Shown: positions 10,800 to 55,738, numbered from the stretch's first letter. The stretch: 64,000 nt of DNA from a virus (IMGVR_UViG_3300039412_000320), one strand, 5' to 3'. The notes: generated by a model from the letters alone, not told the origin. A program made the numbers and translations.

Positions 10800-13490
10800 T
10801 TACTTACTAAAGAACACCCCGCAATTCATACATTCCACGAGGTTTACTCCCTCAGCCTCAGAATCTTCCACGGGTTTGGTTTTGTCACACTTACAGTGGG
10901 GGCAAACGAGATTACCTTCCTCTATCGGAACGGAAACCTTGGCCCCGGCCTGCTTGGATACCATTTTGTCCAGAAGGAAATTCTTTACTTCCGGTTCAAG
11001 GCTATCAAGGTCGCCGTCACGGTCCATCTGCATTACCATGCTGTGATAGGCATAGCGTTCCTTGGGGTTGGCTCGAAGTGCCTGCTCCAACTGCTGAATA
11101 GCTGCTTTACTTTCTCCCGTCTGAGCAAACACAATACCTAGAAGAAAGTTAGCCTTCCCGTTATAGGGATTATGTACAAGGGATTGAGTGAGGAAATTAC
11201 GGGCTACATCCCAGTTACCTTGTTTAGCGGCGTCTGCTCCATCGTCATAATATTTCTTTGCAAGATTCGGGTCCCAATCCTTCCCCGCCGCCATGTGCGG
11301 AGTAGCATCCCACGCTTCCCGGATTTGCTGGTCTCGTTCGGAAACATGAGCGGGACCTTCCCACGCCTTTTCAATCTGCGTCTTTCTTTCCAGTTCCGGC
11401 AGGGTGACATTCACTTTCTGCTTGATTTCCTTGGGGAGAGAATCCCATGTAAAGTGGCTCCAGTACTTGTCGATTCCTAGTTTGTCGGCTACATTACGAC
11501 GCTCGGTGTTCTGAGTACTTCTCCACCATCCCTCAGCATCGGCGGCAATCTTGGAACTCTTGATGCCAAGAGACTTCATGAAATCCTTATCTCCCTTAGT
11601 GGGCCTGAATGGTTTAGCACGAGTCACATCCTCATAACCTTCCGGGCCGAACGGAGTGTCCCAGTGAGAATAACCAAAGTGCCTGCGCATAAGCCCCTCG
11701 GCTCCATGAAGAGAGGGTTTGCTATACTTGTTGCCCATGGCAATATCCGTGCGATTCAGTTCATCACTCGTGACACCGCACAACTTGCATTTAAGGGTAA
11801 CATGTGGTACACCCGGACCTGCAAATGCAGGCCGACCGACAATTACGGGAGATTCTGTGGTCTCAGGAACCCCGGCTGCTTCCAGTAACTCAACGTCACC
11901 GGGTTCGATATAGTCAGCCAACTCCTGTAACTCAAGCAACTCACTTGTGCTTATGCGTTCGGCTCTAAGTTCACCTCTCAGATACTCCAAACGGTCCTTT
12001 ACTGAATCGTTGGCTTTTGTACCGCCAAGGGGTTTGCCATAGAGCGTACCCATGTCGGTAACTTCACCTTCTGGTTCATCCTCCTCACCCACACCTGCTC
12101 CCTTCTTAAGGGGTCTCGGCGGTTTGGTGCTCTCATCAACTAGAGTGGGGTCAAGATGCTTGCGAAGCTCGGTCCTCGGCGGCAACATATCGGTGCTGTC
12201 ATATATCTTCACCTCCGAGTCCAAGGCGGACATCTTATCCTGCACCTTCTCCGCCACATCCTCCATCTCCGCTCTATTAACCTGTGGGTTATCCTTGGCG
12301 AGGTCGTTAACTACTTGCTTAACCTGCTGCTGTTCGGTTCCCGTGGGCTTTGCCTGTTGCTGGTCCGGCGCTGACGATGGGAGTGCCTTACTGTTTGTCT
12401 GTGGGTTTGTCTGAGCGGGCTTCGGTGGTGTAGGAGCCGTCCACCGGGGCTGATTGGGGTCATTCTGCACGGGAGCGCCGGGTGCTCCTCCAATAGGAGT
12501 ACCTGTGCCAAAGGATTTCTCCGTGGCGGTCTTGAAGCCGTCCTCTTCACCTTCTTTGAAAAACGTCGCTGTCTCCGGGTCGGGCGGCTGGAGAAGGGGA
12601 TTATGGGGCTGAACGGTATCTACCAATCCCTTGAGAGACCCCCAAATCTTCATCTCCTTCATGAACTGCTCATCCTCGGGGGTATATTCACCGGGGACGA
12701 TGGGTTCTTTCTCGATAGGGTCGCCACAATTGGCACACGTCTCCGCCCCGGATTCCAAAGAAAGCAGGGGTTGTGGGATGACCCCTGAGTCGGTCACATA
12801 ATCCGGGTCATCAACTGGTCCCGGAGGGCCGACCTGCCCCTTGTCCAACATCTCATCAATCATCTCCATCCCACAGCGAGGACAGTAGACTTCCGACCGG
12901 AAGAGATATCCGTCCGGCTCTTCCCACTCTTTCTTGAGAGAGGCCCGGAATTCTTCTCGGTCCTGTATCCGTTTACCGGAGGGGTGGAACTCCTCGGCGG
13001 CTACCTGAGTAATGGGGTCCTGTTTTGCTTTCAGGAGTTCGTTATCTGAATCACTAACAATCTTGACAGGCACGGCGCTCACACTTCCGGTCTTCGCCGT
13101 AAACTTCTTGCACCGGCAGCGGGGACTCTTGCAACCAAACCTGCCCCGGTTCCAATGTTCGTGGAACTGATGACCACACCGGCACATGGAAGAATCGGAG
13201 GCTGTCCGTAGCTTGGGCTTGGTCCGTGGCTCCCAAAAGTCAACCACTCCATCGGATAGTCCATCTACCGCATCCGCTGACCCGTGCTTATTCTGCTCAA
13301 TCTCCGTACCCTTCTCCCCAAACGGCTTGTTGTAGGGGATATCAGTAGTCGGCTCGGCGTGATGCTGCTGGGTCGCATAATCCGGGCTATCAAAAAGCTC
13401 CTCTTTGTCGAATCCCCCCACCCCGCCTCCGGGGACAGGAAGCATTTCGGCTTTTATGAGCAAGGGGCTGTGCGGTTTGGTTATAAACAT
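10800..13490 (-). CDS. large protein with C-terminal TPR-like repeat and several zinc ribbons (start uncertain)
   Basis: 920-aa ORF; CPRCGMEM, CRCGHQFHEH...CRCKK, CPHCKCDK...CMNCG ribbons; NWDVARNFLTQSLVHNPYNGKANFLLGIVFAQTGESKAAIQQLEQALRANP resembles TPR; N-terminal 24-40 aa of track ORF look spurious. Confidence 0.6.
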   Translation of the reverse strand: MFITKPHSPLLIKAEMLPVPGGGVGGFDKEELFDSPDYATQQHHAEPTTDIPYNKPFGEKGTEIEQNKHGSADAVDGLSDGVVDFWEPRTKPKLRTASDSSMCRCGHQFHEHWNRGRFGCKSPRCRCKKFTAKTGSVSAVPVKIVSDSDNELLKAKQDPITQVAAEEFHPSGKRIQDREEFRASLKKEWEEPDGYLFRSEVYCPRCGMEMIDEMLDKGQVGPPGPVDDPDYVTDSGVIPQPLLSLESGAETCANCGDPIEKEPIVPGEYTPEDEQFMKEMKIWGSLKGLVDTVQPHNPLLQPPDPETATFFKEGEEDGFKTATEKSFGTGTPIGGAPGAPVQNDPNQPRWTAPTPPKPAQTNPQTNSKALPSSAPDQQQAKPTGTEQQQVKQVVNDLAKDNPQVNRAEMEDVAEKVQDKMSALDSEVKIYDSTDMLPPRTELRKHLDPTLVDESTKPPRPLKKGAGVGEEDEPEGEVTDMGTLYGKPLGGTKANDSVKDRLEYLRGELRAERISTSELLELQELADYIEPGDVELLEAAGVPETTESPVIVGRPAFAGPGVPHVTLKCKLCGVTSDELNRTDIAMGNKYSKPSLHGAEGLMRRHFGYSHWDTPFGPEGYEDVTRAKPFRPTKGDKDFMKSLGIKSSKIAADAEGWWRSTQNTERRNVADKLGIDKYWSHFTWDSLPKEIKQKVNVTLPELERKTQIEKAWEGPAHVSERDQQIREAWDATPHMAAGKDWDPNLAKKYYDDGADAAKQGNWDVARNFLTQSLVHNPYNGKANFLLGIVFAQTGESKAAIQQLEQALRANPKERYAYHSMVMQMDRDGDLDSLEPEVKNFLLDKMVSKQAGAKVSVPIEEGNLVCPHCKCDKTKPVEDSEAEGVNLVECMNCGVFFSK

Positions 13491-24784: not shown

Positions 24785-24826
24785 AAAAACAACTTTCTCG
24801 GTATTTATATGAGGGGGTTGTGTATG

Positions 24827-25531
24827 TTCATCTATCTGATTGTCAACCACGAGACTGGGAAGTACTATGTCGGTCAGCATAAGGGGAACAACCTAAAAAA
24901 ATACCTACAGCAGAAGTTTCATCACGCTCAAAAGGGAATCTCCAGTCGTTCCCGTCTTTATAACTCCATGCGTAAGCATCCCCTTCCCTCTTCTTGGTCC
25001 ATACACGCCCTCCGGGCCGACATCCAAACAAAATCCGAATTAGACGAGACGGAGCGGGACTTCATCAAATTTCTTAGGGCAACTGACCCTGAATATGGCT
25101 ACAACATATGCCGGAGAGGGGAGGGGTTCACGGGGCCGCACGGACCTGCGGCGAGAGCCAAGGTGACCGAAGCTCTGAAACAAAGATGGGCGCAACCGAA
25201 CTTCCGGGAACACTGGAGTGAGATTATGAAAGGGCATCCTACATCACAAGAGACTATCGACAAGATTAAGGCTGCCCGTGTCTTGCAGGACGAAGCACCA
25301 CGGGCCGAAGGCTGTAGGAAGTATGCGGCAGAGCACCCCAAAGAAATGTCAGCACGCCTGTCCCACGAGGCCCACATACTGGGGGGCAGGGCTGGAACAC
25401 GGGAAGCCAAGCAAAGGGCCGCCAAAATCAGCATTGAAAGAAACAGCCGTAGGAAAGCCCAACATGTTCGCTGGCATGTCAACCGAGGGTTGATTAACCC
25501 AGAATGTTTACTTTGTAAACCATCTTTGTAG
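24827..25531 (+). CDS. GIY-YIG homing endonuclease (MFIYLIVNH paralog family, copy 1)
   Basis: MFIYLIVNHETGKYYVGQHKGNNLKKYLQQK...GYNICRRGEGFTGP; start moved to Met shared with paralogs at 27676 and 60615. Confidence 0.85.
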   Translation, partial: FIYLIVNHETGKYYVGQHKGNNLKKYLQQKFHHAQKGISSRSRLYNSMRKHPLPSSWSIHALRADIQTKSELDETERDFIKFLRATDPEYGYNICRRGEGFTGPHGPAARAKVTEALKQRWAQPNFREHWSEIMKGHPTSQETIDKIKAARVLQDEAPRAEGCRKYAAEHPKEMSARLSHEAHILGGRAGTREAKQRAAKISIERNSRRKAQHVRWHVNRGLINPECLLCKPSL

Positions 25532-25724: not shown

Positions 25725-26327
25725 TTGAAGCGAATCATCTTTCTTCGTCATCCTCAGACGGCCTACAACATGGAGCCAATTCGGCTCCGGGGGGCGCTTG
25801 ACATCCCTCTGTCCCCGGCTGGATTCGCTCAGATACCACTGATAGTTGAAAAATTAAGGGGTCAATACTGCTGCATCAAACAGGTGTATTCCAGCCCATT
25901 GGAGCGGGCTTCCATATTGGCAACCACTGTAGCCCATGAGTATGGGTTAAAGGTAGATAAACTAGACGGCCTCAAAAGCCGAGACTACGGCATTATGAAT
26001 GGCAAACCTGTAGATGAAGTAAAGGATGTACTGGGAATCCTTGCTACGGGAGCGGGCCGGGATTTGTTCCCCAAGGGTGGGGAATCCATGAACACTTTCC
26101 TCGAAAAGTTGATAGAAGCCATTAAGCAAATCATTTATCAAGCTCCCGAGGATGGGGAGGTTCTAGTCTGCACTCACCTCCAGAACATCATGCTGGGGAC
26201 GAAGTGGTTATTCAATGGATTGCCGGAAATATCCGACTTCACATTCACTTACAGTGAGGCGAATGAAATACCACCGGGTGAGTGGATAGAGGTGAAAAGG
26301 GATTGGGTGGTGGTGAAGAATGATTAG
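25725..26327 (+). CDS. histidine phosphatase superfamily (phosphoglycerate-mutase-like) protein; TTG start in track
   Basis: FLRHPQTAYN near N-terminus matches the RHG phosphohistidine motif; about 200 aa as in SixA/PGAM-like enzymes. Confidence 0.6.
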   Translation: MKRIIFLRHPQTAYNMEPIRLRGALDIPLSPAGFAQIPLIVEKLRGQYCCIKQVYSSPLERASILATTVAHEYGLKVDKLDGLKSRDYGIMNGKPVDEVKDVLGILATGAGRDLFPKGGESMNTFLEKLIEAIKQIIYQAPEDGEVLVCTHLQNIMLGTKWLFNGLPEISDFTFTYSEANEIPPGEWIEVKRDWVVVKND

Positions 26328-27675: not shown

Positions 27676-28554
27676 ATGTTCATTTATCTTATTGTCAATC
27701 ACGAAACCGGGAAGTACTACGTTGGACAGCACAAAGGGGATAACCTTAAAGCCTACTTGCAGCGTAAATTTTCCGCCGCAAAACACAATGAGGGTAAGGG
27801 GGGTTCTTATTTATTCGCCTCTATGCGTAAACATCCCCTTTCCTCCTCTTGGTCCATTCATGCCCTTCGTTCGGATATCCAAACAAAAGAAGAGCTTAAC
27901 GAAACCGAGAGGGATTTTATCAAATTTCTGCGGTCACAAGACCCCGAGTATGGGTACAACATTTGTAAGGGTGGGGAAGGACATACAGGACCGTTATCTC
28001 AAGAAACTCGTCAAAAAATATCTACTCACCACAAACAAATGTGGACTAACCCTGAAATAAAACAACATTTCTTAACACAAATGATAGTGGGGCATAGGAA
28101 TAGTTCATCGTGGCATACCCCGGAAGGTCTTGAAAAAATTAAACAGGCAATTGCTGGATTAAAACGCACGCCTGAGACATGTAATAAAATACGGATTAAA
28201 CGTCTGCTACAGCCAGACCCCCGGCGTGGGAAACATCATTCAGAGAAAACGAAAAAACGTATTAGCGAGGTCAAAAAAGGTACCCCAAGTTCCTTCCGTG
28301 GAAAACACCATAGTGATGAGTCAAAAGAGAAAAACCGAAAAGCCCATTTAATAAATCTGCAAGGACAAGATTTTGGAAACGTAATTCCCATGTCTTTAGT
28401 AGCGTCTAATCCCCAATCCAAGTGGGCGGTTAAATGCATTGTTTGCGGGTCCGAGGGAATAGTGAGGGGGGATAGAATCAGAAGTGGTGATTCCGCTTTC
28501 ATGAGAGCACACTCTGGGATACATGAAGTCTCGAATAGGGGGATACAAAACTAA
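27676..28554 (+). CDS. GIY-YIG homing endonuclease (MFIYLIVNH paralog family, copy 2)
   Basis: MFIYLIVNHETGKYYVGQHKGDNLKAYLQRK...GYNICKGGEGHTGP; NUMOD3-like C-terminal modules; stop overlaps next start (TAATG). Confidence 0.85.
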   Translation: MFIYLIVNHETGKYYVGQHKGDNLKAYLQRKFSAAKHNEGKGGSYLFASMRKHPLSSSWSIHALRSDIQTKEELNETERDFIKFLRSQDPEYGYNICKGGEGHTGPLSQETRQKISTHHKQMWTNPEIKQHFLTQMIVGHRNSSSWHTPEGLEKIKQAIAGLKRTPETCNKIRIKRLLQPDPRRGKHHSEKTKKRISEVKKGTPSSFRGKHHSDESKEKNRKAHLINLQGQDFGNVIPMSLVASNPQSKWAVKCIVCGSEGIVRGDRIRSGDSAFMRAHSGIHEVSNRGIQN

Positions 28555-30281
28555 TGTACCTCTACCATTGCACCTCCACTGACCGAGTAGTAAGCATCCA
28601 GCATAAAGGGCTACAGCCTTCAATGGACCCACATTGGGGAGGAGACTTGGGAGATACTTCTCTGGGTAAAGTGTTCTTTGCTGATAACCCCCAGCACGCC
28701 TACTATTACGGTGAGATTGTCTTTCGTGACACCTTACAGTTAGAGGGAGCAGCGGGCGCTCCCATCCTGTTAAGAGTAAGAAACCTCCAAGGTATGGTAC
28801 AGGACAAGCAAGATACCCACTCATTCTATGCCGAGAGGGTAATTCCCCCGCAAACCATTGAGATAATGTGGCATGGGTGGAAACCTATAAAGAGCGCCGG
28901 GGGATATTGGGATGAGATGGAGTACCGCCTCAATGACGATGAGAACGTTTATGAAGACTGGGAAGGTACCCCATTCGACAGTATAGAGGAAGTCTTGGCG
29001 GATGCCAAGGCGTCCATTCTAGCACCGGCTAAATCTGGAACTCTTAAAAGAGGGGACCGTATGCCAGATAAGACCAAACCCACTGTATGTTTTGTCCGCC
29101 ACGGGCACACCCCCTATAACTCCTCTACCGGGGATTCCATGGATAGCCGCATCCGGGGATTCACCAATGTGCCCTTAGATGAGATTGGAAAACAACAGGC
29201 AGGGAAAACGGCCAAAAAATTTAAGGGTATGGATATAAAGGAGATATACTCCTCCGACCTTGACCGTGCCGCTTATACAGCAAATGAAATAAAGAAGGTC
29301 ACGGGGGCTAAACTCTACCTCATCCCCAACTTACGACCGTGGGACCTCGGAGATTGGGCTGGAGATACGGTCCGAGAACATATTGAGGAACTCGAACTCC
29401 TCCAGAAAAATATCGACCAAGCCGCTCCCGGAGGCAAGCCCTTCCGGGAGTTCTATGACCGGGCGGTCAGCATTGTCAAGTGGCTACAGGAGAGAGCCAT
29501 AAAGCTTAACGGGAGGATAGTTGCTGTCACTCACTCCCGGTTTTTGAACTCCCTGCCCTGCATCATTTCCGAGGGTGACCCTACTACCGTACCTCTGGCT
29601 GGGGGAGCCGCCACTGGGCAAGTCATTGAAATTGAAAAGGTTGACGGAAATTGGGCTATGCGAACCCTTGATGACGAGATTCAAGAAGTGGAAGAACAGA
29701 AGGCAAAATCCAAAGAAGGCGACTATACAAGCCATAAGAGAGGAACGCCCATGGGAATTTCTACGAAAGCAAGCGATTTGGCGGCATTGGTATCAAAAAC
29801 CGCCCAAGTATTGTGCGAGGGGGACCACCCCAACGCCGATTCCGACCTACAAGCCATGGTGGGCGACCCCACGGATGTCCGTACTTCCACCTTTGCCCAG
29901 TTCCACCCCAATCCGGGGACCATGCAGCTTCCCAATCCTCTCAGCCCTATCGAGGGAGACGAGATTTTCTTCGCCTATATGCTGCCGGGGGCCGTATTCC
30001 AAGCTCATGATGGCAGCGAGTGGAACATCCTGTTTTATGACGGGGCCGACTCCATTCAGATTGAGAACCGCTGGTACCCAAGGATTTCATGGTTTGTGTC
30101 CATCGGAGATATCCGGCGCAGCATTCACCAGTGGATTGAACCCATCACTCAGACCGTTCCGCCTCCGCCGCCCGGCGTCGATTACAGCGCCCTGCCGGTC
30201 AAGGTCATGGACAAGGAAGACAACATCGGAAGTGCTGATGCACTGACCGATGACAAGGTCAGCGGCGGAAGTAGCTGGTAA
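28554..30281 (+). CDS. multidomain protein: N-terminal region resembling the NAD+-binding lobe of KptA/Tpt1 (tentative), central histidine phosphatase domain, unknown C-terminal domain
   Basis: TVCFVRHGHTPYN (RHG motif) at about aa 180-192; N-terminus MYLYHCTSTDRVVSIQHKGL resembles KptA FLYHGTASRFLDEIKKQGL. Confidence 0.55.
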   Translation: MYLYHCTSTDRVVSIQHKGLQPSMDPHWGGDLGDTSLGKVFFADNPQHAYYYGEIVFRDTLQLEGAAGAPILLRVRNLQGMVQDKQDTHSFYAERVIPPQTIEIMWHGWKPIKSAGGYWDEMEYRLNDDENVYEDWEGTPFDSIEEVLADAKASILAPAKSGTLKRGDRMPDKTKPTVCFVRHGHTPYNSSTGDSMDSRIRGFTNVPLDEIGKQQAGKTAKKFKGMDIKEIYSSDLDRAAYTANEIKKVTGAKLYLIPNLRPWDLGDWAGDTVREHIEELELLQKNIDQAAPGGKPFREFYDRAVSIVKWLQERAIKLNGRIVAVTHSRFLNSLPCIISEGDPTTVPLAGGAATGQVIEIEKVDGNWAMRTLDDEIQEVEEQKAKSKEGDYTSHKRGTPMGISTKASDLAALVSKTAQVLCEGDHPNADSDLQAMVGDPTDVRTSTFAQFHPNPGTMQLPNPLSPIEGDEIFFAYMLPGAVFQAHDGSEWNILFYDGADSIQIENRWYPRISWFVSIGDIRRSIHQWIEPITQTVPPPPPGVDYSALPVKVMDKEDNIGSADALTDDKVSGGSSW

Positions 30282-32299: not shown

Positions 32300-32469
32300 C
32301 CGGTCAATCTTCAATTCCATCCGCCCGTTCGCCGGTATTGACAATGACCTGTACCAGCCTCATTTCTTCGACCACTCCCACCGCAAGTTACTGCCGTCGT
32401 ATTTCTCAAAAGCGAGGCAGGGACTCCCGAGGGGAGCATGGGCTGACCCGGCGATTTCGGGGTAGTGTT

Positions 32470-32667
32470 TCATGCGTATATACCGCAGTACTCTGCGTCA
32501 GGATGCTCTTTGCAATATGGGCATGGGTCCACATGTATGCGGCTCAAGACCCGTGCGTAATACTCAATGTAAGGCTCCTCGTATCTTCCCGTCATGGGGC
32601 GACCGCACTTTGCACAATACATGTCAACTTCTAAAGAGATGGTCCCCGCACTGCTCGTAATAGTCAT
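32470..32667 (-). CDS. small Cys-rich zinc-binding protein
   Basis: MYCAKCGRPMTG...PCPYCKEHPDAEYCG; start moved to internal Met to avoid overlap with AAA gene. Confidence 0.4.
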   Translation of the reverse strand: MTITSSAGTISLEVDMYCAKCGRPMTGRYEEPYIEYYARVLSRIHVDPCPYCKEHPDAEYCGIYA

Positions 32668-32674
32668 ACTACCC

Positions 32675-33691
32675 TCACTTGTTAAAGCCCGGATGCGAGA
32701 CGCCTTCACTGGACTTCGGCTTAATCTTCATTCCCTTTAGCCGTTCGATGGTTTCGTCAAATGGCCGGTCAAGGCATTGCGTAGCGACCACGAACTCCCG
32801 CAGGTGGGCAATGCTGAGGTCGTTGGTTTCCTTCGCCCAACCGGCTATTTGCTCTTTCGTGAATTTCTCTCCGATGGCACGGGTCAGATACATGCGTCGG
32901 GCCGACTCGTCCGGCATAGGGACCTTTATCACTTCGTCAAAGCGGCTCGGGCGGTTGACGATACGAGGCCCGAGGTTCTCAGGGTAGTTCGTCGTGGCGA
33001 TATGCACCACGTTGTTTACCTGATGCTCACCGTCCAGAAAGCTGAGCAAATCGTGTTCGCCCCGGTGCTCAATCACTTCCTCAATATCTTCCATGATGAC
33101 GATAAGCGGGCGGTCCGGCTCTATCCGGCGAAGGACCCGCAGAGCGTTGATTGCCATGCCCGGATGCTGGCAGATGATGACAATACCGCCCCGCTTGATG
33201 AGCTTTTCAATAAGCAGAGCGACCGTCGCCGTCTTACCCGACCCGGCGTTGCCCCACAGGAGGATACCCCGCTTGAACAGGATGCCCATAGCGGAGAACT
33301 TCTCCTTGGAGTCCCAAAAGGTTTCGATGGAGTTGATGACCTGTTGAGTGACCGTCTCCCCAAGGTCATAAAGGGTGTCAGTCATTGGCTTGGACTTGAG
33401 GAAGTATATCCTCCCGTCGCTGTCCTGAGAGAGGTTGTAGACCCCCGGAGGAAGCGTATCAGTGGTCTTGGAGGAGGCGGAAAAGCTACCGTTAGGATGC
33501 ACCTGCCACTGGCAGACGTTCATGGTGATGACATCATCGGATTCGTCGCTCCCCGTGGGACCTTGGGCGCTAGTCTTATTTCCACGGGGAACACCTTGGT
33601 CTGAATCCCTTGCTGCCTTATCGTTCATCCTACCTTGCAGTTCCGCCCAATCGTCGGATGCTGACATATTTTCTCCCTCACATTTCGGCAT
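32675..33691 (-). CDS. AAA+ ATPase
   Basis: Walker A GNAGSGKTAT, Walker B IVIMEDIEE, sensor-2-like NRPSRFD; start overlaps NadV stop (TAATG). Confidence 0.75.
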   Translation of the reverse strand: MPKCEGENMSASDDWAELQGRMNDKAARDSDQGVPRGNKTSAQGPTGSDESDDVITMNVCQWQVHPNGSFSASSKTTDTLPPGVYNLSQDSDGRIYFLKSKPMTDTLYDLGETVTQQVINSIETFWDSKEKFSAMGILFKRGILLWGNAGSGKTATVALLIEKLIKRGGIVIICQHPGMAINALRVLRRIEPDRPLIVIMEDIEEVIEHRGEHDLLSFLDGEHQVNNVVHIATTNYPENLGPRIVNRPSRFDEVIKVPMPDESARRMYLTRAIGEKFTKEQIAGWAKETNDLSIAHLREFVVATQCLDRPFDETIERLKGMKIKPKSSEGVSHPGFNK

Positions 33692-35121
33692 TAGTCATCT
33701 TCCCGGTTGTAGCGGTCATAACCGCTGGAGATTTCCCGGACTTCGTCAAGGGTCTGGTGCCGCTTAATTACCCCATCTTCAAATACTGTCTCCAGCTTAT
33801 CTTCGTGGCCTGTGGCGAGCTTCATATCGTATTCCTGCTCCACAGTCTCGAATTCCCCATCCGACAGTTCCAAGAGGGAGAACCTGCCGCCGATGGATGC
33901 CTTGGACGGGTCGGTCTTAACCGTCTTGTGAACATCCTCCCACCGACCGTCCCGGCAGATAGCGGAGCATTTGATGGCGAACCGCATGGTATCACGGTTC
34001 TGCTGTTGAAGCAAAGCACCGCCCATGCCGTAGCCCCAGTTGTCCATGGACCACCCGGCCCGTGTCAGGTGACTGTTGATGCGGCAGATGTTCTGGTAGT
34101 TGACTCCGTCGCCTTGGATGACCCGGACCTGCTTGGGCAGGACCTTCCAACCCTTAGCGTTTGTCTCGAAGCCAAACTTCTCGGCAATGGCGTTGAACAT
34201 GTCTTCAATGACGACACAGGGGTCACCGCTATCCGGGCGCAGGACCACCACGCCGTCACGCCGCAGAATTGTTTCCCGCAACTTGCCGCCGAAGATGTTA
34301 GCAACGGCGTTGTGGGTGTCGTAGCTGTCTACCACGAGCGCCACGAGGCCAGCCGGGACCTTCTCCAGCATGTTGGCATAAGCCTCAGCCTCGGCATCCT
34401 CACCCCACGAAGTAACGGTGGAGTGCTCCATCGCCGGGATGGAGAAACCGGCGCAGGGGCAATCGTAGAACTGCTCCAGAAGCGAAAGAGCCGCCATGGT
34501 GTCGGTGCCCATGAAATTGACAAGGTGGGCAGCCCCGCCGATAGCAGCGGTCTCCTGAGAGCTAACGCCCCTGTATCCGAAGTCGTGCAACTTGAAACCG
34601 AGTCCAGCCGGGTCACCGGTACGCACAAGGTCCCTGCCGATGGTCTGCTTGATTTCAAATGACAGGGTCCCAACCGTGATGGGATACCACACTTGCAGGA
34701 GTTGGGTTTCCGCCCAGTTGGTCAGCCACGGGAATTCCTTGTCGGTGTTTTCGATGGTCATCAACACGTTCTTGATGGGAACCACGGTACCCTCTTTAAC
34801 CGCACGAATGCGCAGGGGCAACTTGCCGCCATGCTTTTCCAGCAACCGCATCCAGCCGTTGAAGTTGAATACTTCATCGTTGCCGAAATGCCGGTGACAA
34901 ATGCGGGCAGCTTCGTGGACATCTTTCTTGGTGAACACCTTGCCCTCGAAGTATGCGGCGAGGATGTATTGCAGCCCGGAGAACAATGTGTGCTGCCAGA
35001 AACCACCCCGGCTCATGAGGTAGCTGTACACATATTCCGCATCCGAAGGATACTGAAACCAGTGCGACAGCTTGTAGCTGTCTGTCCTTAAAATGGGGTT
35101 AAGCTTGAGTGCTTTGGGCAT
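33691..35121 (-). CDS. nadV: nicotinamide phosphoribosyltransferase (NAMPT/NadV family)
   Basis: MPKALKLNPILRTDSYKLSHWFQYP matches NAMPT N-terminus (NILLATDSYKVTHYKQYP); about 475 aa; start set to that Met. Confidence 0.85.
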   Translation of the reverse strand: MPKALKLNPILRTDSYKLSHWFQYPSDAEYVYSYLMSRGGFWQHTLFSGLQYILAAYFEGKVFTKKDVHEAARICHRHFGNDEVFNFNGWMRLLEKHGGKLPLRIRAVKEGTVVPIKNVLMTIENTDKEFPWLTNWAETQLLQVWYPITVGTLSFEIKQTIGRDLVRTGDPAGLGFKLHDFGYRGVSSQETAAIGGAAHLVNFMGTDTMAALSLLEQFYDCPCAGFSIPAMEHSTVTSWGEDAEAEAYANMLEKVPAGLVALVVDSYDTHNAVANIFGGKLRETILRRDGVVVLRPDSGDPCVVIEDMFNAIAEKFGFETNAKGWKVLPKQVRVIQGDGVNYQNICRINSHLTRAGWSMDNWGYGMGGALLQQQNRDTMRFAIKCSAICRDGRWEDVHKTVKTDPSKASIGGRFSLLELSDGEFETVEQEYDMKLATGHEDKLETVFEDGVIKRHQTLDEVREISSGYDRYNREDD

Positions 35122-36040
35122 GTGTGTTCTCCTTTTTGGTAAGATGTTGTTGCAGCATCTCGAAGAGAGGACGATGCTCCTTCTCAAAATCCTCCACAGT
35201 CAATTTGCTTATGTCAAACCACTGCGCTTGGGAAAGGTCATCGCTGCCCTTCCCGCCCATAGTCATACTGTACGCCATGAAGAAGACGGTCTTGAAGCCC
35301 TCAGATGGCTCCGAGCGCCAGCGCCAGCTATCGACCTTGCGGGAGCCGACATATTCAAGGTCTTGGATGTCCAGACCCGTCTCCTCGAACGCTTCCTTCT
35401 TGGCATCAGCCTCGAAGGTTGGCGTGCTGAATATTGCGTGCCCGCCCGGAAAACGCCAGAACGTGTCATCTGGCTTCTTGCCGAGGAGAAGCATCAAACC
35501 CTTCTCCGCCTTGTGCAGGATAGCAATGTCCACCACGGTGACAAGCCGGGGCCACAGTTGGTTCATGGCGTAGATGACACCCGCCCGGAAAAATGGCGAC
35601 TCCATGACATTGTTGGTCAGCTTGGCACGGATATCCGTGCTGGTAAGGGACGCCGGGACCTCTATCTCCAGTTCCTTGACCTTGTGCTTCCCGTGATAGA
35701 AGGGAGCGAATGAGTCCCTACTACCGTATAATACCACTTCGTGGGGAACTTCTCCCACGGCTTCGGAGATGCGCTCATCCAAACTGTCTGACCACTGTTC
35801 GTCGGTCTTGCAGTCCCGCAGGGGCAATACGGTGAACTCGGGGAACTTCGCCTGAATCATTTTCTTCCGAGTCTCGAAGTCTAACGGGTCGTGCCGGGTC
35901 GGACCGACCTTATTGCAGCCAAGGAATACGATAACCCGCTGGTGACGCCCACGCACAATACGAAAAATTTCAAGGTGCCCGTCATGGAGTTCGTGAACTT
36001 GGAACCGGCCAACTAAAACACCAAATGATGGTTTGGTCAT
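35099..36040 (-). CDS. natV: bifunctional NMN adenylyltransferase / Nudix hydrolase (NadM/NatV-like)
   Basis: GRFQVHELHDGH matches (H/T)xGH nucleotidyltransferase motif; C-terminal Nudix box GLMLLLGKKPDDTFWRFPGGHA...EADAKKEAFEETGLDI. Confidence 0.8.
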   Translation of the reverse strand: MTKPSFGVLVGRFQVHELHDGHLEIFRIVRGRHQRVIVFLGCNKVGPTRHDPLDFETRKKMIQAKFPEFTVLPLRDCKTDEQWSDSLDERISEAVGEVPHEVVLYGSRDSFAPFYHGKHKVKELEIEVPASLTSTDIRAKLTNNVMESPFFRAGVIYAMNQLWPRLVTVVDIAILHKAEKGLMLLLGKKPDDTFWRFPGGHAIFSTPTFEADAKKEAFEETGLDIQDLEYVGSRKVDSWRWRSEPSEGFKTVFFMAYSMTMGGKGSDDLSQAQWFDISKLTVEDFEKEHRPLFEMLQQHLTKKENTHAQSTQA

Positions 36041-36954
36041 GATACCCTCCTGTATCGTTCCCCCAACTCATATCGTTCAATTAATTCAATGCACTGTCCC
36101 TGTTCCGTCCACTCTCTAGAAAACTTACTGATTAAACTGAACAACTCTTTAACAGACAAATCGGATGTTACTCTTTTCCTACAATTTTCGGAGTGTGTGA
36201 CATACCGGCAATTTGCTGGATGCCTTACTATCTCCGGGAAAACCCCAAGAGCATATGCCTGTTTTCGAGACAGCCTATGGTCTCGTACCAACCCAGTCTT
36301 ATTCTTAACTGGATGAAATATACCCAACTCAGAAACTCGTCTCTTTGTCTCTATTGGCTGAAATTGTAGCAAGTTAGCCCCATTAACCCAATTCGATAAT
36401 TTCCGGTATAGAGCAAAATCAGACAAGTTTTCTAGCGGCGTCCAATTGCCGTGTTCCTCATTTACTTTTCTTACACGTTTACGATATTCATCAGTAAACT
36501 TCTCCCTTGATTTAGTACCAATCTTTCTCTTGGATTTTTCTGAGCAAGGGTGTGATATTCCTTTATGGCCCTCACTTAGCCGTTGTAACCATACGTTGCC
36601 AAAAACCCTTCCTCGGTTTGCTGTTCCCGCCCCCCATCGTTCTCTTGGGTTTAGCATACGTAGCGAAACCTGTTTAGAAATAAGTTTCTTTGTATGTTTA
36701 GACACTTTGTTTCCATAGTTGGGGTTACCGGTCCCTGAAAAGTCCCTACTCCTTTTTAGGTCCGAGCATTTCCTGCTACAGACTATACGAGGCATTTCAT
36801 GCCCTGATATCAAAAATCTCGTGGAACATTCACTACACACCTGTAAGAACTGGTGCCGTTTCTTTTTCCCTTGAAACCCCTCATTTCGTTTTAAGCATGT
36901 TCCTCGAATCTCATTATTTCCCACCCCTGTCTTGCAATGAAAGCACATTAACAC
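36037..36954 (-). CDS. homing-endonuclease-like protein with NUMOD3 repeats and HNH-like C-terminus
   Basis: GNPNYGNKVSKHTKKLISK and GHKGISHPCSEKSKRKIGTKS modules; C-terminal DHRLSRKQ...HPANCRYVTHSENCRK. Confidence 0.6.
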   Translation of the reverse strand: MLMCFHCKTGVGNNEIRGTCLKRNEGFQGKKKRHQFLQVCSECSTRFLISGHEMPRIVCSRKCSDLKRSRDFSGTGNPNYGNKVSKHTKKLISKQVSLRMLNPRERWGAGTANRGRVFGNVWLQRLSEGHKGISHPCSEKSKRKIGTKSREKFTDEYRKRVRKVNEEHGNWTPLENLSDFALYRKLSNWVNGANLLQFQPIETKRRVSELGIFHPVKNKTGLVRDHRLSRKQAYALGVFPEIVRHPANCRYVTHSENCRKRVTSDLSVKELFSLISKFSREWTEQGQCIELIERYELGERYRRVS

Positions 36955-37016
36955 GATTTTATCCTCCTATTAAAGGAGTTGAAAGTCATGTTTATTGTGC
37001 TAGTCATGAGACGGAT

Positions 37017-37355
37017 TTATACTGCAATTCCCTTTTTGGCTTTCATTACGATATCATCATATGCGGTGAATGGGCACAGAGAAGCGTTTAAGCTAAAACT
37101 GGACTTGTCAAATTCTACCGTAAGGATGCGTATTCTGTTTTCCATGCGGAAGACCCGAACATGTTGCCATGGCTCGTCCTGCACCTCCAAAAACTCGCAG
37201 TAAAAGTACGCCTGCATCTCGTGCGTCCAGTTATCGAGCAATACTCTTATCTCGGTCTGGAGCATACTGGTGACCGCTCTACCCATCAAGGGTCTGAATC
37301 GCTCCATCAAGTTCTGCTGGAGGTCAGCGTCCGAAAGTGAGTCATAGTCGCTCAT
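37017..37355 (-). CDS. hypothetical protein (112 aa)
   Basis: ORF in track. Confidence 0.45.
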   Translation of the reverse strand: MSDYDSLSDADLQQNLMERFRPLMGRAVTSMLQTEIRVLLDNWTHEMQAYFYCEFLEVQDEPWQHVRVFRMENRIRILTVEFDKSSFSLNASLCPFTAYDDIVMKAKKGIAV

Positions 37356-40369: not shown

Positions 40370-41068
40370 TTAATGCTTGCCACAGACACAGGGTAAACCA
40401 CGGTTTATGTGCTGATGCTTGCAACGTGCCTTAAGATTCCCAGTATTGGCAACCGCTATTTTATCTCGCTGGGCTTTCGGCATCACATATCCTGTATGCG
40501 CTAAGGACATATTTCTCCTTATTTCGTCAGTATACACTCTTTCCCTTGCCATCTTAGCTATCCGCTGGCGCTCAGACTCGGGCATACCTTGCTCTATCTT
40601 TATCTTGGATAGGAGCCGTTTCTGTGCTTCAGACATTGGGCCTTTCTTCTTGCCCCGCTGAATATCCCCAATGAGCTTTCTGGTCTCCTTAGAATGATGC
40701 CAACCACCTGATGCTATCCGGCTAGTAATGGTTTTCCTACGCCGGTCCTCAGTCCACTTAGTACCCAAACAACTTCCCGCCTTCGGAAGAGTGTTATAGC
40801 CGTTTTTGTAACTACCATAAAAATCTAGCCAATGCTGCTCTCGGGCTATGAGGGTCTCCCGGACAGGCTCGCATTGTTCAATAACTACAAATTCCCACGC
40901 CTGTTTTCCGTACTTTCTCCACGCTCGGAGAAATTTCTGACCACTGTGGATTCCCCTGCTAAGCTCCTTAAGGTGGGTTGCTTTTCGTCTTTCAATGTGG
41001 ACAGAGCTTCCGATGTACCACTTTTCTGTTATCGTATTTCTCCACCCGTAGACGCCGCTAGTCTTCAT
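40370..41068 (-). CDS. GIY-YIG homing endonuclease (paralog of 43974..44606)
   Basis: GVYGWRNTITEKWYIGSS...R...GYNTLPKAG; C-terminus CKHQHINRGLPCVCGKH shared with paralog. Confidence 0.85.
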   Translation of the reverse strand: MKTSGVYGWRNTITEKWYIGSSVHIERRKATHLKELSRGIHSGQKFLRAWRKYGKQAWEFVVIEQCEPVRETLIAREQHWLDFYGSYKNGYNTLPKAGSCLGTKWTEDRRRKTITSRIASGGWHHSKETRKLIGDIQRGKKKGPMSEAQKRLLSKIKIEQGMPESERQRIAKMARERVYTDEIRRNMSLAHTGYVMPKAQRDKIAVANTGNLKARCKHQHINRGLPCVCGKH

Positions 41069-43973: not shown

Positions 43974-44606
43974 ATGAGTAAAATGTGCGGCGTCTATTCA
44001 ATCACTAATACTGAAAATGGAAAAAAGTACATCGGGTCAAGCGTCAACATCTACCATCGGTGGAGACTGCACCGCTGGAGGCTTGATAGGGGGGAACACC
44101 ATTCCCCTCACCTTCAAAGTAGTTGGAAAAAACGAGGACCGAAAGCATTCAAGTTTGAGGTCCTGCTTGAATGCGACCGAGATTCACTTATAAAATACGA
44201 ACAGGAATTCATAGACCGTTTTAATACCACCCAAAACGGGTACAACATCTGTCCTGTAGCGGGCAATTGTCTTGGGTTATCCCCATCTCCTGAGACCCGT
44301 GCCAAATTAGCAAAAGCTTGGAAAGGAAGGAAACATACCAAGGCCAGCAGGCGGTTGATGTCCTTGGCTACAAGAGGTGTGCCCAAATCTTATGCTCACA
44401 AGGCGGCGTTACGGGGACCCCGTGGTAAGCTGGAAAATATCCGTTTATCTAAACTGGGGGATAAGAATCCCAATTTTGGCAAGCCCCGTTCAGAGGAGAC
44501 AAAACGAAAGATAGCTGAGGCACAAAGAGGTATTCCACGGAAGGGAAATTGTCTTCGATGGAACATCAACCGTGGGAAGTCCTGCACCTGTGGAAAGCAT
44601 CTTTAG
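43974..44606 (+). CDS. GIY-YIG homing endonuclease (paralog of 40370..41068, inverted orientation)
   Basis: CGVYSITNTENGKKYIGSS...HRW...GYNICPVAG; C-terminus CLRWNINRGKSCTCGKHL. Confidence 0.85.
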   Translation: MSKMCGVYSITNTENGKKYIGSSVNIYHRWRLHRWRLDRGEHHSPHLQSSWKKRGPKAFKFEVLLECDRDSLIKYEQEFIDRFNTTQNGYNICPVAGNCLGLSPSPETRAKLAKAWKGRKHTKASRRLMSLATRGVPKSYAHKAALRGPRGKLENIRLSKLGDKNPNFGKPRSEETKRKIAEAQRGIPRKGNCLRWNINRGKSCTCGKHL

Positions 44607-45055
44607 CTAGACATATTACGTTCACCAAAAAATATACCCTTGGGGTTACCGGTTTCTAATCTTGTCATTTCCTCTACGATTTTACTACTTACACTTTCAG
44701 ATAATTGATTTGTAGATAAAGCATCCCGAAGAGCAAACCACGCTTGTCCTACCGGGGTTTTATCCCACAACCATTGACGATACGCTTCTACAGTTTTATG
44801 CCCTTTTCTACAGTTACAGGTTTTACAACAGGCTACCAAATTAGATAGTTGGTTTCCTCCTTCGGGGTTTTGATGGTCTCTAGTATAGTTATGACTCAAA
44901 CTATTTGGGTCACAGATTAAGACTACGCCACAATACCAGCAACGTTCTTTACTCAATTGTAACGTTTCCAAGGACGAGGGGAACCTCATATTAAATCTTC
45001 TTGGAATATCCCTCTGTTTCCGATACTCATCGCAATAAGCGTCGTAGTTGGACAT
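44603..45055 (-). CDS. HNH endonuclease
   Basis: CWYCG...HNYTRDHQNPEGGNQLSNLVACCKTCNCRKG. Confidence 0.75.
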   Translation of the reverse strand: MSNYDAYCDEYRKQRDIPRRFNMRFPSSLETLQLSKERCWYCGVVLICDPNSLSHNYTRDHQNPEGGNQLSNLVACCKTCNCRKGHKTVEAYRQWLWDKTPVGQAWFALRDALSTNQLSESVSSKIVEEMTRLETGNPKGIFFGERNMSS

Positions 45056-47368: not shown

Positions 47369-47517
47369 CCTATAGTTGCGTAATCCGGCTCCCGCTGACC
47401 ATCACCCTCATGAATCTTAACGTCGGAAGGTAGGTAGCTCAAGAGCGACCGGCATTCCGTACATTCGACTTCCTTTGGTTCCGATTTAGGCGGAGCCTTA
47501 AGCACCCTGATTGCCAT
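47302..47517 (-). CDS. small zinc-ribbon protein (71 aa)
   Basis: CTECRS...CPTCGG pair of CxxC. Confidence 0.4.
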   Translation of the reverse strand: MAIRVLKAPPKSEPKEVECTECRSLLSYLPSDVKIHEGDGQREPDYATIGCPTCGGSVTVPMVKAWELRRR

Positions 47518-48391
47518 CTCTTTGCTCCTTTATTGCGGCCTCGTACTGCTTGCGGAGAGCGGTGTCGGCCTTCTGCCGGGCCTCCTCCGCCAGAGCTTCC
47601 TCATAAAGCGCCTTCGCCTTGGCGATGTGCTCTTCGGACTGCGGCACCCCGGCTGCGTTGACGCTGAGGAACAGCCACAGGATGTCCGCCTTGCCGACCT
47701 TGGTGGAATCCAGCATCACGTACTGCACATTGGTATCCTCGAACGCATGAACGTCAGCATTGGAAAGCTGGTAGAAGGTCTTGCCCTTGTAAGGGAAACG
47801 CCCCTCGATATACTCCCGGATGGAGACGATACGCTGCTTGCCGTCCACGATTTCCAGTCGGTACTCCGGGTAGGGATATTCCACAAAGACAAACTTGCCG
47901 ATGTCGGTCCGATTGAAGATGGAGTCAATGAGCCGCTGCTTATCTTCGAGGGTCCACACGTATCCCCGCTGGTACTCCGGGTTGTCGATGTATCCCCGGC
48001 GATAGCCGGTCAGTATCATGCCATCCATGCCGGTGGTGACGTATTGGGCGTGGATGCGGGGGCGAGCAAAGTTGGTGTTCTCTTGCAGGCACTTGGGGGT
48101 AATCTGGTTCCACCAGACAATACGGGGTTTCCGACCGCAGTCAACCTCGTTCCCATAGACATGTTGAACGTCGTGGTAGGAGATGTGGTAACTCATCCCG
48201 TTATCAAAGATTTCCTCTATCCGGGCGTCCTTTAGACCACCGAGAATGACTTCCTCTCCCACCTTGTAGAGATAGGTGGGGTTCGGCGGCACAACCCAAT
48301 CCTCACCTTGGGAATGCCAGTTGCGCTTTTCCCACGCCAGCCACTCGGCGTAAGTCTCGGGTTGCTTCTCTTTAGGTTGCCGTTTCGCCAT
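47498..48391 (-). CDS. DUF262 (ParB-like / GmrSD N-terminal) domain protein
   Basis: DNPEYQRGYVWTLEDKQRLIDSIFNRTDIGKFVF matches the QR..VW...LIDSI core; start set to MAKRQPKEK with GAGGGGG upstream. Confidence 0.65.
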   Translation of the reverse strand: MAKRQPKEKQPETYAEWLAWEKRNWHSQGEDWVVPPNPTYLYKVGEEVILGGLKDARIEEIFDNGMSYHISYHDVQHVYGNEVDCGRKPRIVWWNQITPKCLQENTNFARPRIHAQYVTTGMDGMILTGYRRGYIDNPEYQRGYVWTLEDKQRLIDSIFNRTDIGKFVFVEYPYPEYRLEIVDGKQRIVSIREYIEGRFPYKGKTFYQLSNADVHAFEDTNVQYVMLDSTKVGKADILWLFLSVNAAGVPQSEEHIAKAKALYEEALAEEARQKADTALRKQYEAAIKEQRDGNQGA

Positions 48392-48902
48392 TCTTAACCC
48401 CCTCATTAAAAGAAACCAGCCTGTATTGTCCATAGCTGGTTCTCTCTAACCAACCCTTCTCTCGCAGAGCCGAAATCACATGGTCGGCAGCCTTTTCCGT
48501 TCCTTCGAGAAACTTGATGATTTCAGAACGGCTCGTCCTTTTTCGTCCCTGCTGCTCCAGTGTCAAAACCACTTTAGCTTCCTGACGTGATAACGTTCGA
48601 GGAGTATGGCAAAGTTTAATCGGTTTGTTCGCTATCAGAGTTTCTCCCATATTTTTCAAATCATCTGGCGACAACCGATACCACTCATGATGCTCATGCT
48701 TCTCTGCGAACAACTCGTGTAACCGTGTCTCTTCCCTTGGGGCATTTTCAACATAGGTACAAGCTGCCAACCTTAAAATCACGGGGGAACCAACCTGTAA
48801 GTGTTTCAAACGATTCTCAGATGGGTGATTCCGTGAAAACCCAATCTTAAAAAGACCTAACTCATCATTTCCAATGACATACACAAAACCTTTAAGCCGC
48901 AT
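48372..48902 (-). CDS. T5orf172 (GIY-YIG-related) domain protein with C-terminal winged-helix-like region
   Basis: GFVYVIGNDELGLFKIGFS...RLKHLQ pattern; start set to MRLKGF with GGAGGT upstream (track start is TTG). Confidence 0.6.
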   Translation of the reverse strand: MRLKGFVYVIGNDELGLFKIGFSRNHPSENRLKHLQVGSPVILRLAACTYVENAPREETRLHELFAEKHEHHEWYRLSPDDLKNMGETLIANKPIKLCHTPRTLSRQEAKVVLTLEQQGRKRTSRSEIIKFLEGTEKAADHVISALREKGWLERTSYGQYRLVSFNEGVKNGETAT

Positions 48903-48994
48903 ATGACCTCCATTAAATATCAATGGAAGTCTAAATCTTTCAATAGCTTAATCCCAAAATCCCCCCGATACAAAGGGTTTCGTGTAGAGGAATC

Positions 48995-54748: not shown

Positions 54749-54826
54749 TGGTTCCAGAGGGAGGACTCGAACCTCCAGTCTCAACGGGTTCAAAGCCCGG
54801 CGTGTTACCAATTACACTACTCTGGA
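54749..54826 (-). tRNA. tRNA gene; apparent anticodon UUG (Gln?), assignment tentative
   Basis: Hand-folded cloverleaf: acceptor TCCAGAG/CTCTGGA, D-arm GTGT-AATTGGTA-ACAC, anticodon loop CTTTGAA, T-arm GGAGG-TTCGAGT-CCTCC, CCA encoded; one mismatch at top of anticodon stem; 7-nt variable loop. Confidence 0.6.
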
Positions 54827-54833
54827 ATAAAGC

Positions 54834-54921
54834 TGGATGGGAAGGAGGGACTCGAACCCTCACAAGCATTTACTGTCTCCTGATTCAAAGTCAGGCGTGT
54901 TACCAATTACACCACTTCCCA
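54834..54921 (-). tRNA. tRNA-like gene with 17-nt variable arm; identical D-arm and anticodon loop to preceding tRNA (apparent UUG)
   Basis: Acceptor TGGGAAG/CTTCCCA, D-arm GTGT-AATTGGTA-ACAC, anticodon stem CCTGA/TCAGG loop CTTTGAA, variable AGACAGTAAATGCTTGT, T-arm GAGGG-TTCGAGT-CCCTC, CCA encoded. Confidence 0.55.
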
Positions 54922-54960
54922 ATCTATGTCAAACGCATCAAAAATGGTGCATTTGGAAAC

Positions 54961-55046
54961 TGGAGCCGGGTGCGGGATTTTAACCCACGTGGGATTTCTC
55001 CGCCTGCTTACAGGACAGGTGCCATCGTACACTAGGCTAACCCGGC
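54961..55046 (-). tRNA. tRNA-like gene, type II (14-nt variable arm, 3-bp D-stem); anticodon unresolved by hand
   Basis: Acceptor GCCGGGT/ACCCGGC, T-arm GTGGG-TTAAAAT-CCCGC, CCA encoded; anticodon stem CCTGT/GCAGG gives loop CCTGTAA with C at position 33, which is atypical. Confidence 0.45.
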
Positions 55047-55498
55047 TAACGACCGATACCACCACTTCTACATGCTCTACAAAATCTCTGGACTCCCGAG
55101 GGTTGCCACTTATTAAGATTGAACAATCCCTTACCCAGAAACTTTTTATGTCCATAGCACCATGCTTCTCCTTCTGGTGCTGTGTTTACATGATTAATTC
55201 TAGCTCTTTCTAGTTGTTCTCTTAACTTGGGAATATTCCTTCGTGCCGCCCTAATGTTGCATGACTTGTGAGAAAAGGCAATGTTACCTAAATCCCAAAA
55301 CAGGTCAGGCGACATATCCAGCCAAGGTTTCTTGTGTTCAATAGAGAACTGAGCGGCGTTCTCAATCTTTTTGCCACATTGAAAGCAGCTATCCAAATTA
55401 AGTTGCTTCGCCATATGGAAAAGTAGTTGCTTCAACAACCTTCCACTTGCTGTTCCAAAAGGCATCCCCAACTGATTTCTTACCTTATAGTGGTCCAT
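55046..55498 (-). CDS. HNH endonuclease
   Basis: CFQCGKKIENAAQFSIEHKKPW...GNIAFSHKSCN; stop abuts 5' end of tRNA at 55046. Confidence 0.7.
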   Translation of the reverse strand: MDHYKVRNQLGMPFGTASGRLLKQLLFHMAKQLNLDSCFQCGKKIENAAQFSIEHKKPWLDMSPDLFWDLGNIAFSHKSCNIRAARRNIPKLREQLERARINHVNTAPEGEAWCYGHKKFLGKGLFNLNKWQPSGVQRFCRACRSGGIGR

Positions 55499-55581
55499 AC
55501 TCCACCCCCAATAAAGGTGGAGATAGTTGAGAATTTGGGAATTACAGTTGTCTCCATTCTAAAAAAATACTCAATAAAACT

Positions 55582-55657
55582 TGGAGCCCAAGGTCAGAAT
55601 CGAACTGACGACCCCTCCCTTACCAAGGGAATGCTCTACCACTGAGCTACGAGGGCT
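55582..55657 (-). tRNA. tRNA gene, apparent anticodon GGU (Thr)
   Basis: D-arm GCTC-AGTGGTA-GAGC, anticodon arm TTCCC-TTGGTAA-GGGAG, T-arm GTCAG-TTCGATT-CTGAC; acceptor stem shows two mismatches in my hand fold. Confidence 0.55.
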
Positions 55658-55662
55658 AAAAA

Positions 55663-55738
55663 TGGAGCCGATGAGCGGCCCTGACCCGCTGACCTCTCGC
55701 TTACGAGGCGAGTGCTCTGCCACCTGAGCTACATCGGC
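55663..55738 (-). tRNA. tRNA gene, apparent anticodon CGU (Thr)
   Basis: Perfect acceptor GCCGATG/CATCGGC, D-arm GCTC-AGGTGGCA-GAGC, anticodon arm CTCGC-CTCGTAA-GCGAG; T-loop GTCAGGG non-canonical; CCA encoded. Confidence 0.6.

Follow-up and report, generated by a model that had tools for sequence, protein, structure and literature searches.

Genes at positions 32675–36040 of the window

We analysed a viral DNA stretch of 64,000 nucleotides (nt) (IMGVR_UViG_3300039412_000320), which is referred to as the window, and within it the putative NAD+ salvage genes at positions 32675–36040. Its source is a large tailed phage: the phage origin is indicated by seven tRNA genes, many homing endonucleases and a gene for a tail sheath (phrog_2839, E 2e-24). 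A viral contig in IMG/VR (L004) is ~93% identical to the window, and a megablast search against GenBank phages gave no match to it. Positions 32675–36040 are occupied by three closely packed minus-strand open reading frames (ORFs), which encode a predicted nicotinamide mononucleotide (NMN) adenylyltransferase fused to a Nudix hydrolase (NMNAT/Nudix), a nicotinamide phosphoribosyltransferase (NAMPT, or NadV) and an AAA+ ATPase (Table 1). The three ORFs lie on the minus strand at the positions given in a preliminary description of the locus, and the peptides quoted there are found in them: LNPILRTDSYKLSHWFQYP in NAMPT and GRFQVHELHDGH in the NMNAT/Nudix ORF.

The NMNAT/Nudix gene starts with the ATG at 36040, which has GGAGGG ahead of it (36050–36045), and its stop codon occupies 35101–35099. 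For NAMPT, the TTG at 35187 chosen by the ORF lister was set aside for the ATG at 35121, which has the Shine-Dalgarno sequence AAGGAG at 35134–35129 (spacer of 7 nt) and yields the N-terminus MPKALKLNPILRTDSYK. The two genes, which had been described as adjacent and overlapping, therefore overlap by 23 nt, and they are almost certainly co-translated. The AAA+ gene had been described as translationally coupled to NAMPT through a TAATG. This pentanucleotide is present at the NAMPT stop codon (33693–33689), and a start at its ATG (33691) would give the AAA+ protein eight more codons. However, a second in-frame ATG at 33667, 24 nt beyond the TAATG, is preceded by GAGGGAG (33679–33673, spacer of 5 nt), and the AAA+ homologues as well as an identical database protein (P0121) begin at MSASDD, which corresponds to this ATG. 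The AAA+ gene is therefore more likely to start at 33667, 23 nt past the NAMPT stop, than at a stop/start overlap. Promoter and terminator scans for operon boundaries gave counts at or below the shuffled expectation and were uninformative.

Table 1. Genes of the locus and its immediate flanks, in window coordinates.
Feature	Position	Strand	Length	Remarks
Predicted bifunctional NMN adenylyltransferase (aa ~1-160)/Nudix hydrolase (aa ~165-300), NadM-Nudix type	35099..36040	-	313 aa	
Nicotinamide phosphoribosyltransferase (NAMPT/NadV)	33691..35121	-	476 aa	
Classic-clade AAA+ ATPase	32675..33667	-	330 aa	
Free-standing NUMOD3/HNH-like homing-endonuclease-type gene	36037..36954	-	305 aa	NUMOD3 E 1e-3, phrog_23051 E 9e-16
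CxxC...CxxC zinc-ribbon ORF, context gene	32470..32667	-	65 aa	Weak zinc-ribbon Pfam matches, E 0.005-0.05

NAMPT and its NMNAT/Nudix partner

Judged by its sequence, the NAMPT is an orthodox member of its family. It scores 562 bits against the NCBIfam model NF006629, above the curated cutoff of 405, and contains the Pfam domains NAMPT_N (E 2e-31, 108 bits) and NAPRTase (E 2e-49, 169 bits). The matches to phrog_448 (E 7e-149) and to the solved Xanthomonas NAMPT (PDB 7yqo, E 5e-132) are also far beyond chance, which bears out the earlier assignment as NadV, and the protein is 46% identical to human NAMPT. Seventeen active-site positions from the literature were compared in an alignment to human NAMPT. 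They include the nicotinamide-specificity Asp (D219 in human numbering), the autophosphorylated His (H247), and the residues that bind phosphoribosyl pyrophosphate (PRPP) or phosphate (R196, R311, D313, D354, R392, K400, K415 and K423). Sixteen of the 17 are identical. F193 is unchanged, and so are the catalytic residues R196, D219, H247, R311, D313, D354 and R392; the loss of Asp/Arg residues at the PRPP site, which the preliminary description had named as an observation that would speak against it, is not seen. The sole change, S275 to Ala, is common to the Xanthomonas NAMPT. The numbering of the human sequence agreed at all 17 tested positions. Compared with L004, the window gene carries 52 synonymous and 0 non-synonymous codon differences.

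The NMNAT/Nudix gene is strictly associated with NAMPT. Counts of NMNAT/Nudix and AAA+ loci, here and below, rest on the best 80 of each list, and co-localisation was measured locally. All 80 viral loci of the NMNAT/Nudix clade (36–92% identity) carry a NAMPT gene downstream on the same strand; the two genes overlap in 17 loci, are less than 300 nt apart in 37 and are separated by inserted genes in 26. NMNAT/Nudix and NAMPT form a unit, which is characteristic of medium and jumbo phages that carry extensive sets of metabolic genes. The PADLOC defence models matched neither protein.

Pfam detects a NUDIX domain in the 313-aa protein (E 5e-10, residues 170–294) and, below threshold, a CTP_transf_like domain (E 9e-4, residues 9–83). 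Sequence matches in the PDB are 2qjo (E 4e-8) and 2qjt (E 6e-7). The AlphaFold2 model has a predicted local distance difference test score (pLDDT) of 80, with low values at residues 13–16 and 127–156. In a Foldseek search with this model, the best six matches are full-length NadM-Nudix structures (2r5w, 2qjo and 2qjt; E ~1e-16), which are matched over both domains, and the next is the Nudix domain of NrtR, which binds ADP-ribose (ADPR). The protein therefore resembles the bacterial NadM-Nudix enzymes of Synechocystis (slr0787, 2qjo) and Francisella (FTT0672, 2qjt/2r5w) in its two-domain fold, and it shares with them GRFQ...HxGH, SxTxxR and the Nudix EUxEE glutamates. In contrast, it is only 17–18% identical to them and about 30 aa shorter.

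The metagenomic family of this protein exceeds 1,400 members, many of which are on contigs of 100–900 kb. In IMG/VR the clade has 335 viral-contig matches, and among 185,579 species genomes it was found on 2 contigs of metagenome-assembled genomes; only 14 GenBank phage records match it at E<=1e-5, mostly huge phages. This distribution, together with the sequence comparisons, places the protein in a deeply diverged NadM-Nudix clade that appears to be essentially phage-restricted. The order of NMNAT/Nudix followed by NAMPT on the same strand also occurs in T5-like vibriophages (VspSw_1 and vB_VpS_PG07) and in huge phages (LR756502 and Tunturi_5), whose NadM-Nudix proteins differ from that of the window in being 24–39% identical to it. 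The annotated NMNAT/ADPR-pyrophosphatase of the cultured vibriophage VspSw_1 is matched by the clade profile at E 5e-26 over both domains.

The putative catalytic motifs are well conserved in an alignment of 121 family members, in which H19, G21, H22, R138, E216, E219 and E220 are each kept in 112–121. The HxGH motif of the NMNAT domain is H19-D-G21-H22 and is near-invariant; the SxTxxR motif takes the form S/T-x-T135-x-x-R138, with R138 present in 121/121. The Nudix core reads K215-E216-A-F-E219-E220-T-G222-L, and its glutamates are found in 115–121 of the homologues. Neither HxGH nor the Nudix glutamates, the other residues whose loss had been singled out beforehand, have been lost. Codon differences from a relative amount to 71 synonymous and 26 non-synonymous changes, which indicates that the gene is under selection.

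A predicted nicotinamide-to-NAD+ route

An NAD+ salvage pathway made up of NadV and NatV was reportedly described for vibriophage KVP40 by Lee et al. in 2017. NAD+ reconstitution pathway 2 (NARP2) was defined from the KVP40 Nampt and Nmnat, whose co-occurrence is 94%, and it abolishes Thoeris and DSR2 defence (Osterman et al., bioRxiv 10.1101/2024.02.11.579819). The window shares with this system the same two enzymes (NAMPT, and NMNAT fused to Nudix), the predicted chemistry, the location in a phage and, within the 64 kb examined, the lack of an Adps partner. The genes very probably constitute a functional cassette of the NARP2 type (KVP40 NadV/NatV), which would convert nicotinamide to NMN and then to NAD+ with PRPP from the host. 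All computational tests run support the KVP40-type two-enzyme route that the preliminary description had proposed.

Homology suggests three steps. NAMPT would join nicotinamide and host-made PRPP to form NMN, for which it would employ the autophosphorylated His (H233 here, H247 in the human enzyme) together with the residues conserved at its PRPP and nicotinamide sites. The N-terminal nucleotidyltransferase domain of the partner would then adenylylate NMN with ATP to give NAD+. Like that of the solved bacterial NadM-Nudix enzymes, the Nudix domain would probably cleave ADPR, and perhaps NAD(H) as well, into AMP and ribose-5-phosphate; this would clear ADPR and return ribose-5-phosphate toward PRPP via the host Prs. 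The net effect would be that NAD+ is maintained during infection.

The cassette differs from that of KVP40 in several respects. The NAMPT of a KVP40-like schizotequatrovirus is 44% identical to the window NAMPT, whereas the window NMNAT/Nudix belongs to another, deeply diverged clade. The arrangement is also different from that of the KVP40-like phage phi-Grn1: NMNAT directly precedes and overlaps NAMPT in the window, whereas in phi-Grn1 the 5 kb around NAMPT, taken on both sides of the record ends, contain no NatV homologue.

The homology of NAMPT to Namat raises the alternative of NARP1-like chemistry, in which the enzyme would work as a Namat on ADPR-pyrophosphate (ADPR-PP) rather than on PRPP; the KVP40 Nampt itself has minor activity on ADPR-PP (bioRxiv 10.1101/2024.02.11.579819). 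This is extremely unlikely for the window protein. No Prs/Adps-like gene was found within the 64 kb window (tblastn with E. coli Prs gave chance-level matches only, and Pfam scans, which covered about 45 of roughly 80 ORFs, gave nothing), which is consistent with NARP2 rather than NARP1. The tight pairing with NMNAT, which marks the Nampt clade (bioRxiv 10.1101/2024.02.11.579819), also argues against it, as do the 46% identity to the human enzyme and the intact PRPP site.

Four observations weigh against a salvage cassette of the NARP2 type, and they all concern the NMNAT/Nudix protein. The NCBIfam NadM-Nudix models (PRK05379) give at best 46.7 bits, when their cutoffs are 354–449 (409 for the best model); so far below these cutoffs, the protein represents a distinct clade and no equivalog of the curated bacterial enzymes. 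Just ahead of HxGH, the ATP-binding loop of the NMNAT domain contains an insertion and is modelled poorly (pLDDT<50, residues 13–16). The Nudix box is non-canonical when compared with Gx5Ex7REUxEExGU, because the loop from the Gly to the Glu contains an additional residue, and Pro207 and Lys215 occupy the positions of the first Glu and of the Arg. In addition, a tblastn search with NMNAT/Nudix at E<=1 finds other phage NadM-Nudix proteins and no NatV of the schizotequatrovirus/KVP40 type. Of the bifunctional enzyme in the preliminary description, the two domains, HxGH, the Arg of SxTxxR and the metal-binding glutamates thus stand, whereas the Nudix box does not have its canonical form.

The first three of these points could be read as signs of a degenerate or regulatory relic, either an inactive enzyme or an NrtR-like ADPR sensor, such that NMN but not NAD+ would be made. 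The rank of the NrtR Nudix domain as the best structural match after NadM-Nudix fits such a relic. The insertion, however, is no private lesion. It accounts for the unusual appearance of GRFQVHELHDGH and is a clade-wide addition of two residues before HxGH, in the form GRFQV[H/N][E/D]LH[D/E]GH, with Val for the Pro of GxFxPxHxGH. The bacterial enzymes lack it, as does the VspSw_1 protein, whose canonical spacing (RLQ--GFHKGH) indicates that the insertion is clade-specific. At the Arg position of the Nudix box, Lys is found in 28/121 homologues and Arg in 45/121. The protein has no DNA-binding domain, and the near-invariance of HxGH, R138 and the EUxEE glutamates, the strict coupling to NAMPT and the ratio of synonymous to non-synonymous changes also argue against a relic, which is very unlikely.

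A different question is what the phage would gain from the NARP2-type cassette. The same enzymes could provide a general supply of NAD+ for the replication of a large phage, in which NAD-dependent ligase, the redox reactions of nucleotide synthesis and ADP-ribosyltransferases would draw on it. NARP2 raises NAD+ also in the absence of a defence system (bioRxiv 10.1101/2024.02.11.579819), and the prevalence of the pair in medium and jumbo phages rich in metabolic genes suits this explanation. A nearby 575-aa protein has a faint PARP/ADP-ribosyltransferase-like match at its N-terminus (E 0.04) and is a possible NAD+ consumer. This match is sub-threshold, however, and no clear NAD-consuming enzyme is present among the scanned window proteins: apart from it, the only other candidate for an NAD- or ADPR-related gene among the ~45 scanned ORFs is a sub-threshold Nuc_deoxyrib_tr match. 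General supply is, moreover, compatible with counter-defence, which has been shown experimentally for the KVP40 genes (bioRxiv 10.1101/2024.02.11.579819). We regard general supply as the actual benefit as possible, though on the unlikely side.

The two-gene NAD+ salvage pair is already described and common in large phages, and it is intact here; only two points are mildly unusual, an NMNAT insertion specific to the clade and a Nudix box that departs from the canonical form. With the window, another uncultured large phage joins the many that have NAD+ salvage genes, and the understanding of the pathway stays unchanged. It documents the strict NAMPT pairing of a deeply diverged, essentially phage-restricted NadM-Nudix clade, which is of use when viromes are annotated and their counter-defence capacity is counted.

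The AAA+ gene and the surrounding sequence

The AAA+ protein begins with a helix, continues with a disordered linker and a small beta domain, and has a single AAA module (Pfam AAA, E 8e-12). Walker A (GNAGSGKT), Walker B (IMEDIEE), sensor-1 (ATTN) and the second region of homology (SRH; NRPSRFD) are conserved, as is the N-terminal region. Its sequence matches the D2 module of Afg2/VAT/Cdc48 (E ~1e-22) and YjoB (E 5e-19) in the PDB, and the best Foldseek matches are YjoB (7w42) and Bcs1 (6u1y). It shares with B. subtilis YjoB, Bcs1 and the D2 module of Cdc48/Afg2 the single AAA module, Walker A and B, sensor-1 and the SRH arginines; in contrast to them, it has a phage-specific N-terminal region and no conserved gene neighbourhood. 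PADLOC gave only generic ATPase matches (IetA, E 6e-10; TRIP13).

The preliminary description had suggested that this gene may be functionally linked to the NAD+ pair. In such a three-gene system the AAA+ protein would act as a partner, for example by remodelling NAD+-depleting defence complexes or the enzymes themselves. Its gene shares the strand of the pair and starts 23 nt past the NAMPT stop (−1 nt if the TAATG is used), and its codon differences (29 synonymous, 5 non-synonymous) indicate purifying selection. In the window as well as in L001, L004, L005 and L006, no more than about 1 kb separates it from the cassette, and two arrangements occur: the window, L004 and L005 have it downstream of NAMPT, whereas L001 and L006 have it upstream of NMNAT, with small genes between the two. 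Two unrelated loci (L070 and L109) also have an AAA+ homologue near NAMPT. Against this, NAMPT occurs within ~10 kb in only 5 of the 83 AAA+ loci, and four of these five are close relatives of the window that share the whole syntenic block; reciprocally, an AAA+ gene is present within 8 kb in only 3/80 NMNAT/Nudix loci. Contigs of the same lineage (L085, L086/87, L089 and L090), in which NMNAT is 69–82% identical and the p557/His-phosphatase synteny is the same, have no AAA+ gene within 8 kb, and in the huge phage LR756500 the AAA+ and NMNAT/Nudix genes are about 60 kb apart. When the neighbours at the 83 AAA+ loci were clustered, no partner recurred in more than 10, and the recurrent ones are genes of replication and nucleotide metabolism. 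The fold is that of a generic YjoB/Bcs1/Cdc48-like AAA protein.

A conserved three-gene module with the AAA+ protein as NAD+ pathway partner is therefore rejected by both sets of loci, and a functional partnership is very unlikely. Because co-localisation is rare and is rearranged within the lineage, the adjacency reflects local synteny in a mosaic genome; it is confined to part of one phage lineage, and the link suggested earlier is not supported. The AAA+ gene, which encodes a protein of the remodelling class, is widespread in phages and distinct from the pair, and in this lineage it is here by chance; it is probably co-transcribed with the cassette while standing outside its conserved part. 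This negative result warns against over-reading adjacency in mosaic phage genomes. In a very unlikely extension of the NARP2-type reading, the phage-only NadM-Nudix clade, with its remodelled ATP loop and non-canonical Nudix box, may have acquired an altered specificity. The Nudix domain would be adapted to ADPR that defence NADases set free, and ribose-5-phosphate would be fed back to PRPP, so that ADPR and nicotinamide would be recycled in a closed loop, with the AAA+ protein recruited in this lineage as an accessory counter-defence factor.

At one further locus, in a distant relative (L002, 7262–7792; JGI contig Ga0374055_0000025, 894 kb), the AAA+ homologue is beside a second AAA gene and a gene for a NADAR-domain protein (an ADP-ribose-processing family). 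This is a single case that is absent at the other loci.

The cassette is flanked by sequence that varies between the window and L004. Upstream, a window-specific insertion of ~1.3 kb (36052–37350), which is absent from L004 and comprises the NUMOD3/HNH-like gene and a 112-aa ORF, abuts the NMNAT/Nudix start codon; the stop codon of the NUMOD3/HNH-like gene overlaps this ATG as ATGA. The first 150 nt of NMNAT beside the insertion are only 75% identical to L004, while the remainder of the cassette reaches about 95%; co-conversion associated with homing would be expected to leave such a pattern. Downstream, the zinc-ribbon ORF begins 7 nt after the AAA+ stop, and a homologue also follows the AAA+ gene in L004. 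At 32347–32472 (minus strand) there is a 37-codon ORF (MKHYPEIAG...CLAFEKYDGSNLRWEWSKK, then a stop codon) with an RNA-ligase motif-I-like EKxDG. It is what remains of a 206-aa RNA-ligase-like gene, of which L004 has the complete form (region 11192–12354); a deletion of about 980 bp in the window has removed this gene and most of the following 174-aa gene.

The 575-aa protein mentioned above (28554–30281, plus strand) has a central His_Phos_1 domain (aa 178–373, E 8e-32), and the faint PARP/ADP-ribosyltransferase-like match is to its N-terminal ~170 aa, which begin MYLYHCTS; it may be an NAD+-using enzyme, as far as this similarity goes. Its architecture varies between close relatives, since the phosphatase segment (29040–29689) is missing from the L004 orthologue. 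A GIY-YIG endonuclease gene (24809–25531) and a 200-aa His_Phos_1 gene (25725–26327), both on the plus strand, are absent from L004 as well. The two His_Phos_1 copies of the window are 28% identical. A link between them and the published phage ADPR-1''-phosphate phosphatase was rejected, since the published enzyme is a Macro-domain protein attached to NARP1 and does not belong to His_Phos_1.

The sub-threshold nucleoside 2-deoxyribosyltransferase-like match is to a 254-aa protein at 59453–60217 (minus strand; E 2e-4, 21.9 bits against a cutoff of 28.8). The nucleoside 2-deoxyribosyltransferase superfamily is discussed in the literature on NAD+/ADP-ribose conflicts. Adjacent GmrSD_N (DUF262-type, E 4e-18) and T5orf172/MUG113 (E 7e-11) genes at 47498–48923 (minus strand) may be related to nucleases or anti-restriction.

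Free-standing homing endonucleases of the HNH and GIY-YIG/NUMOD3 types are unusually dense in the window (27676–28554, 40370–41068, 43974–44606, 44603–45055 and 55789–56631). The last of these, an HNH-like ORF, is inside the tRNA cluster (54749–56747, minus strand) and overlaps a predicted tRNA-Ile at 55798–55871. The seven tRNA genes of the cluster are two Gln-TTG, three Thr and two Ile-GAT; two of the predictions, a Gln of 88 nt and a Thr of 86 nt, exceed the usual length and could be intron-containing or mis-called.

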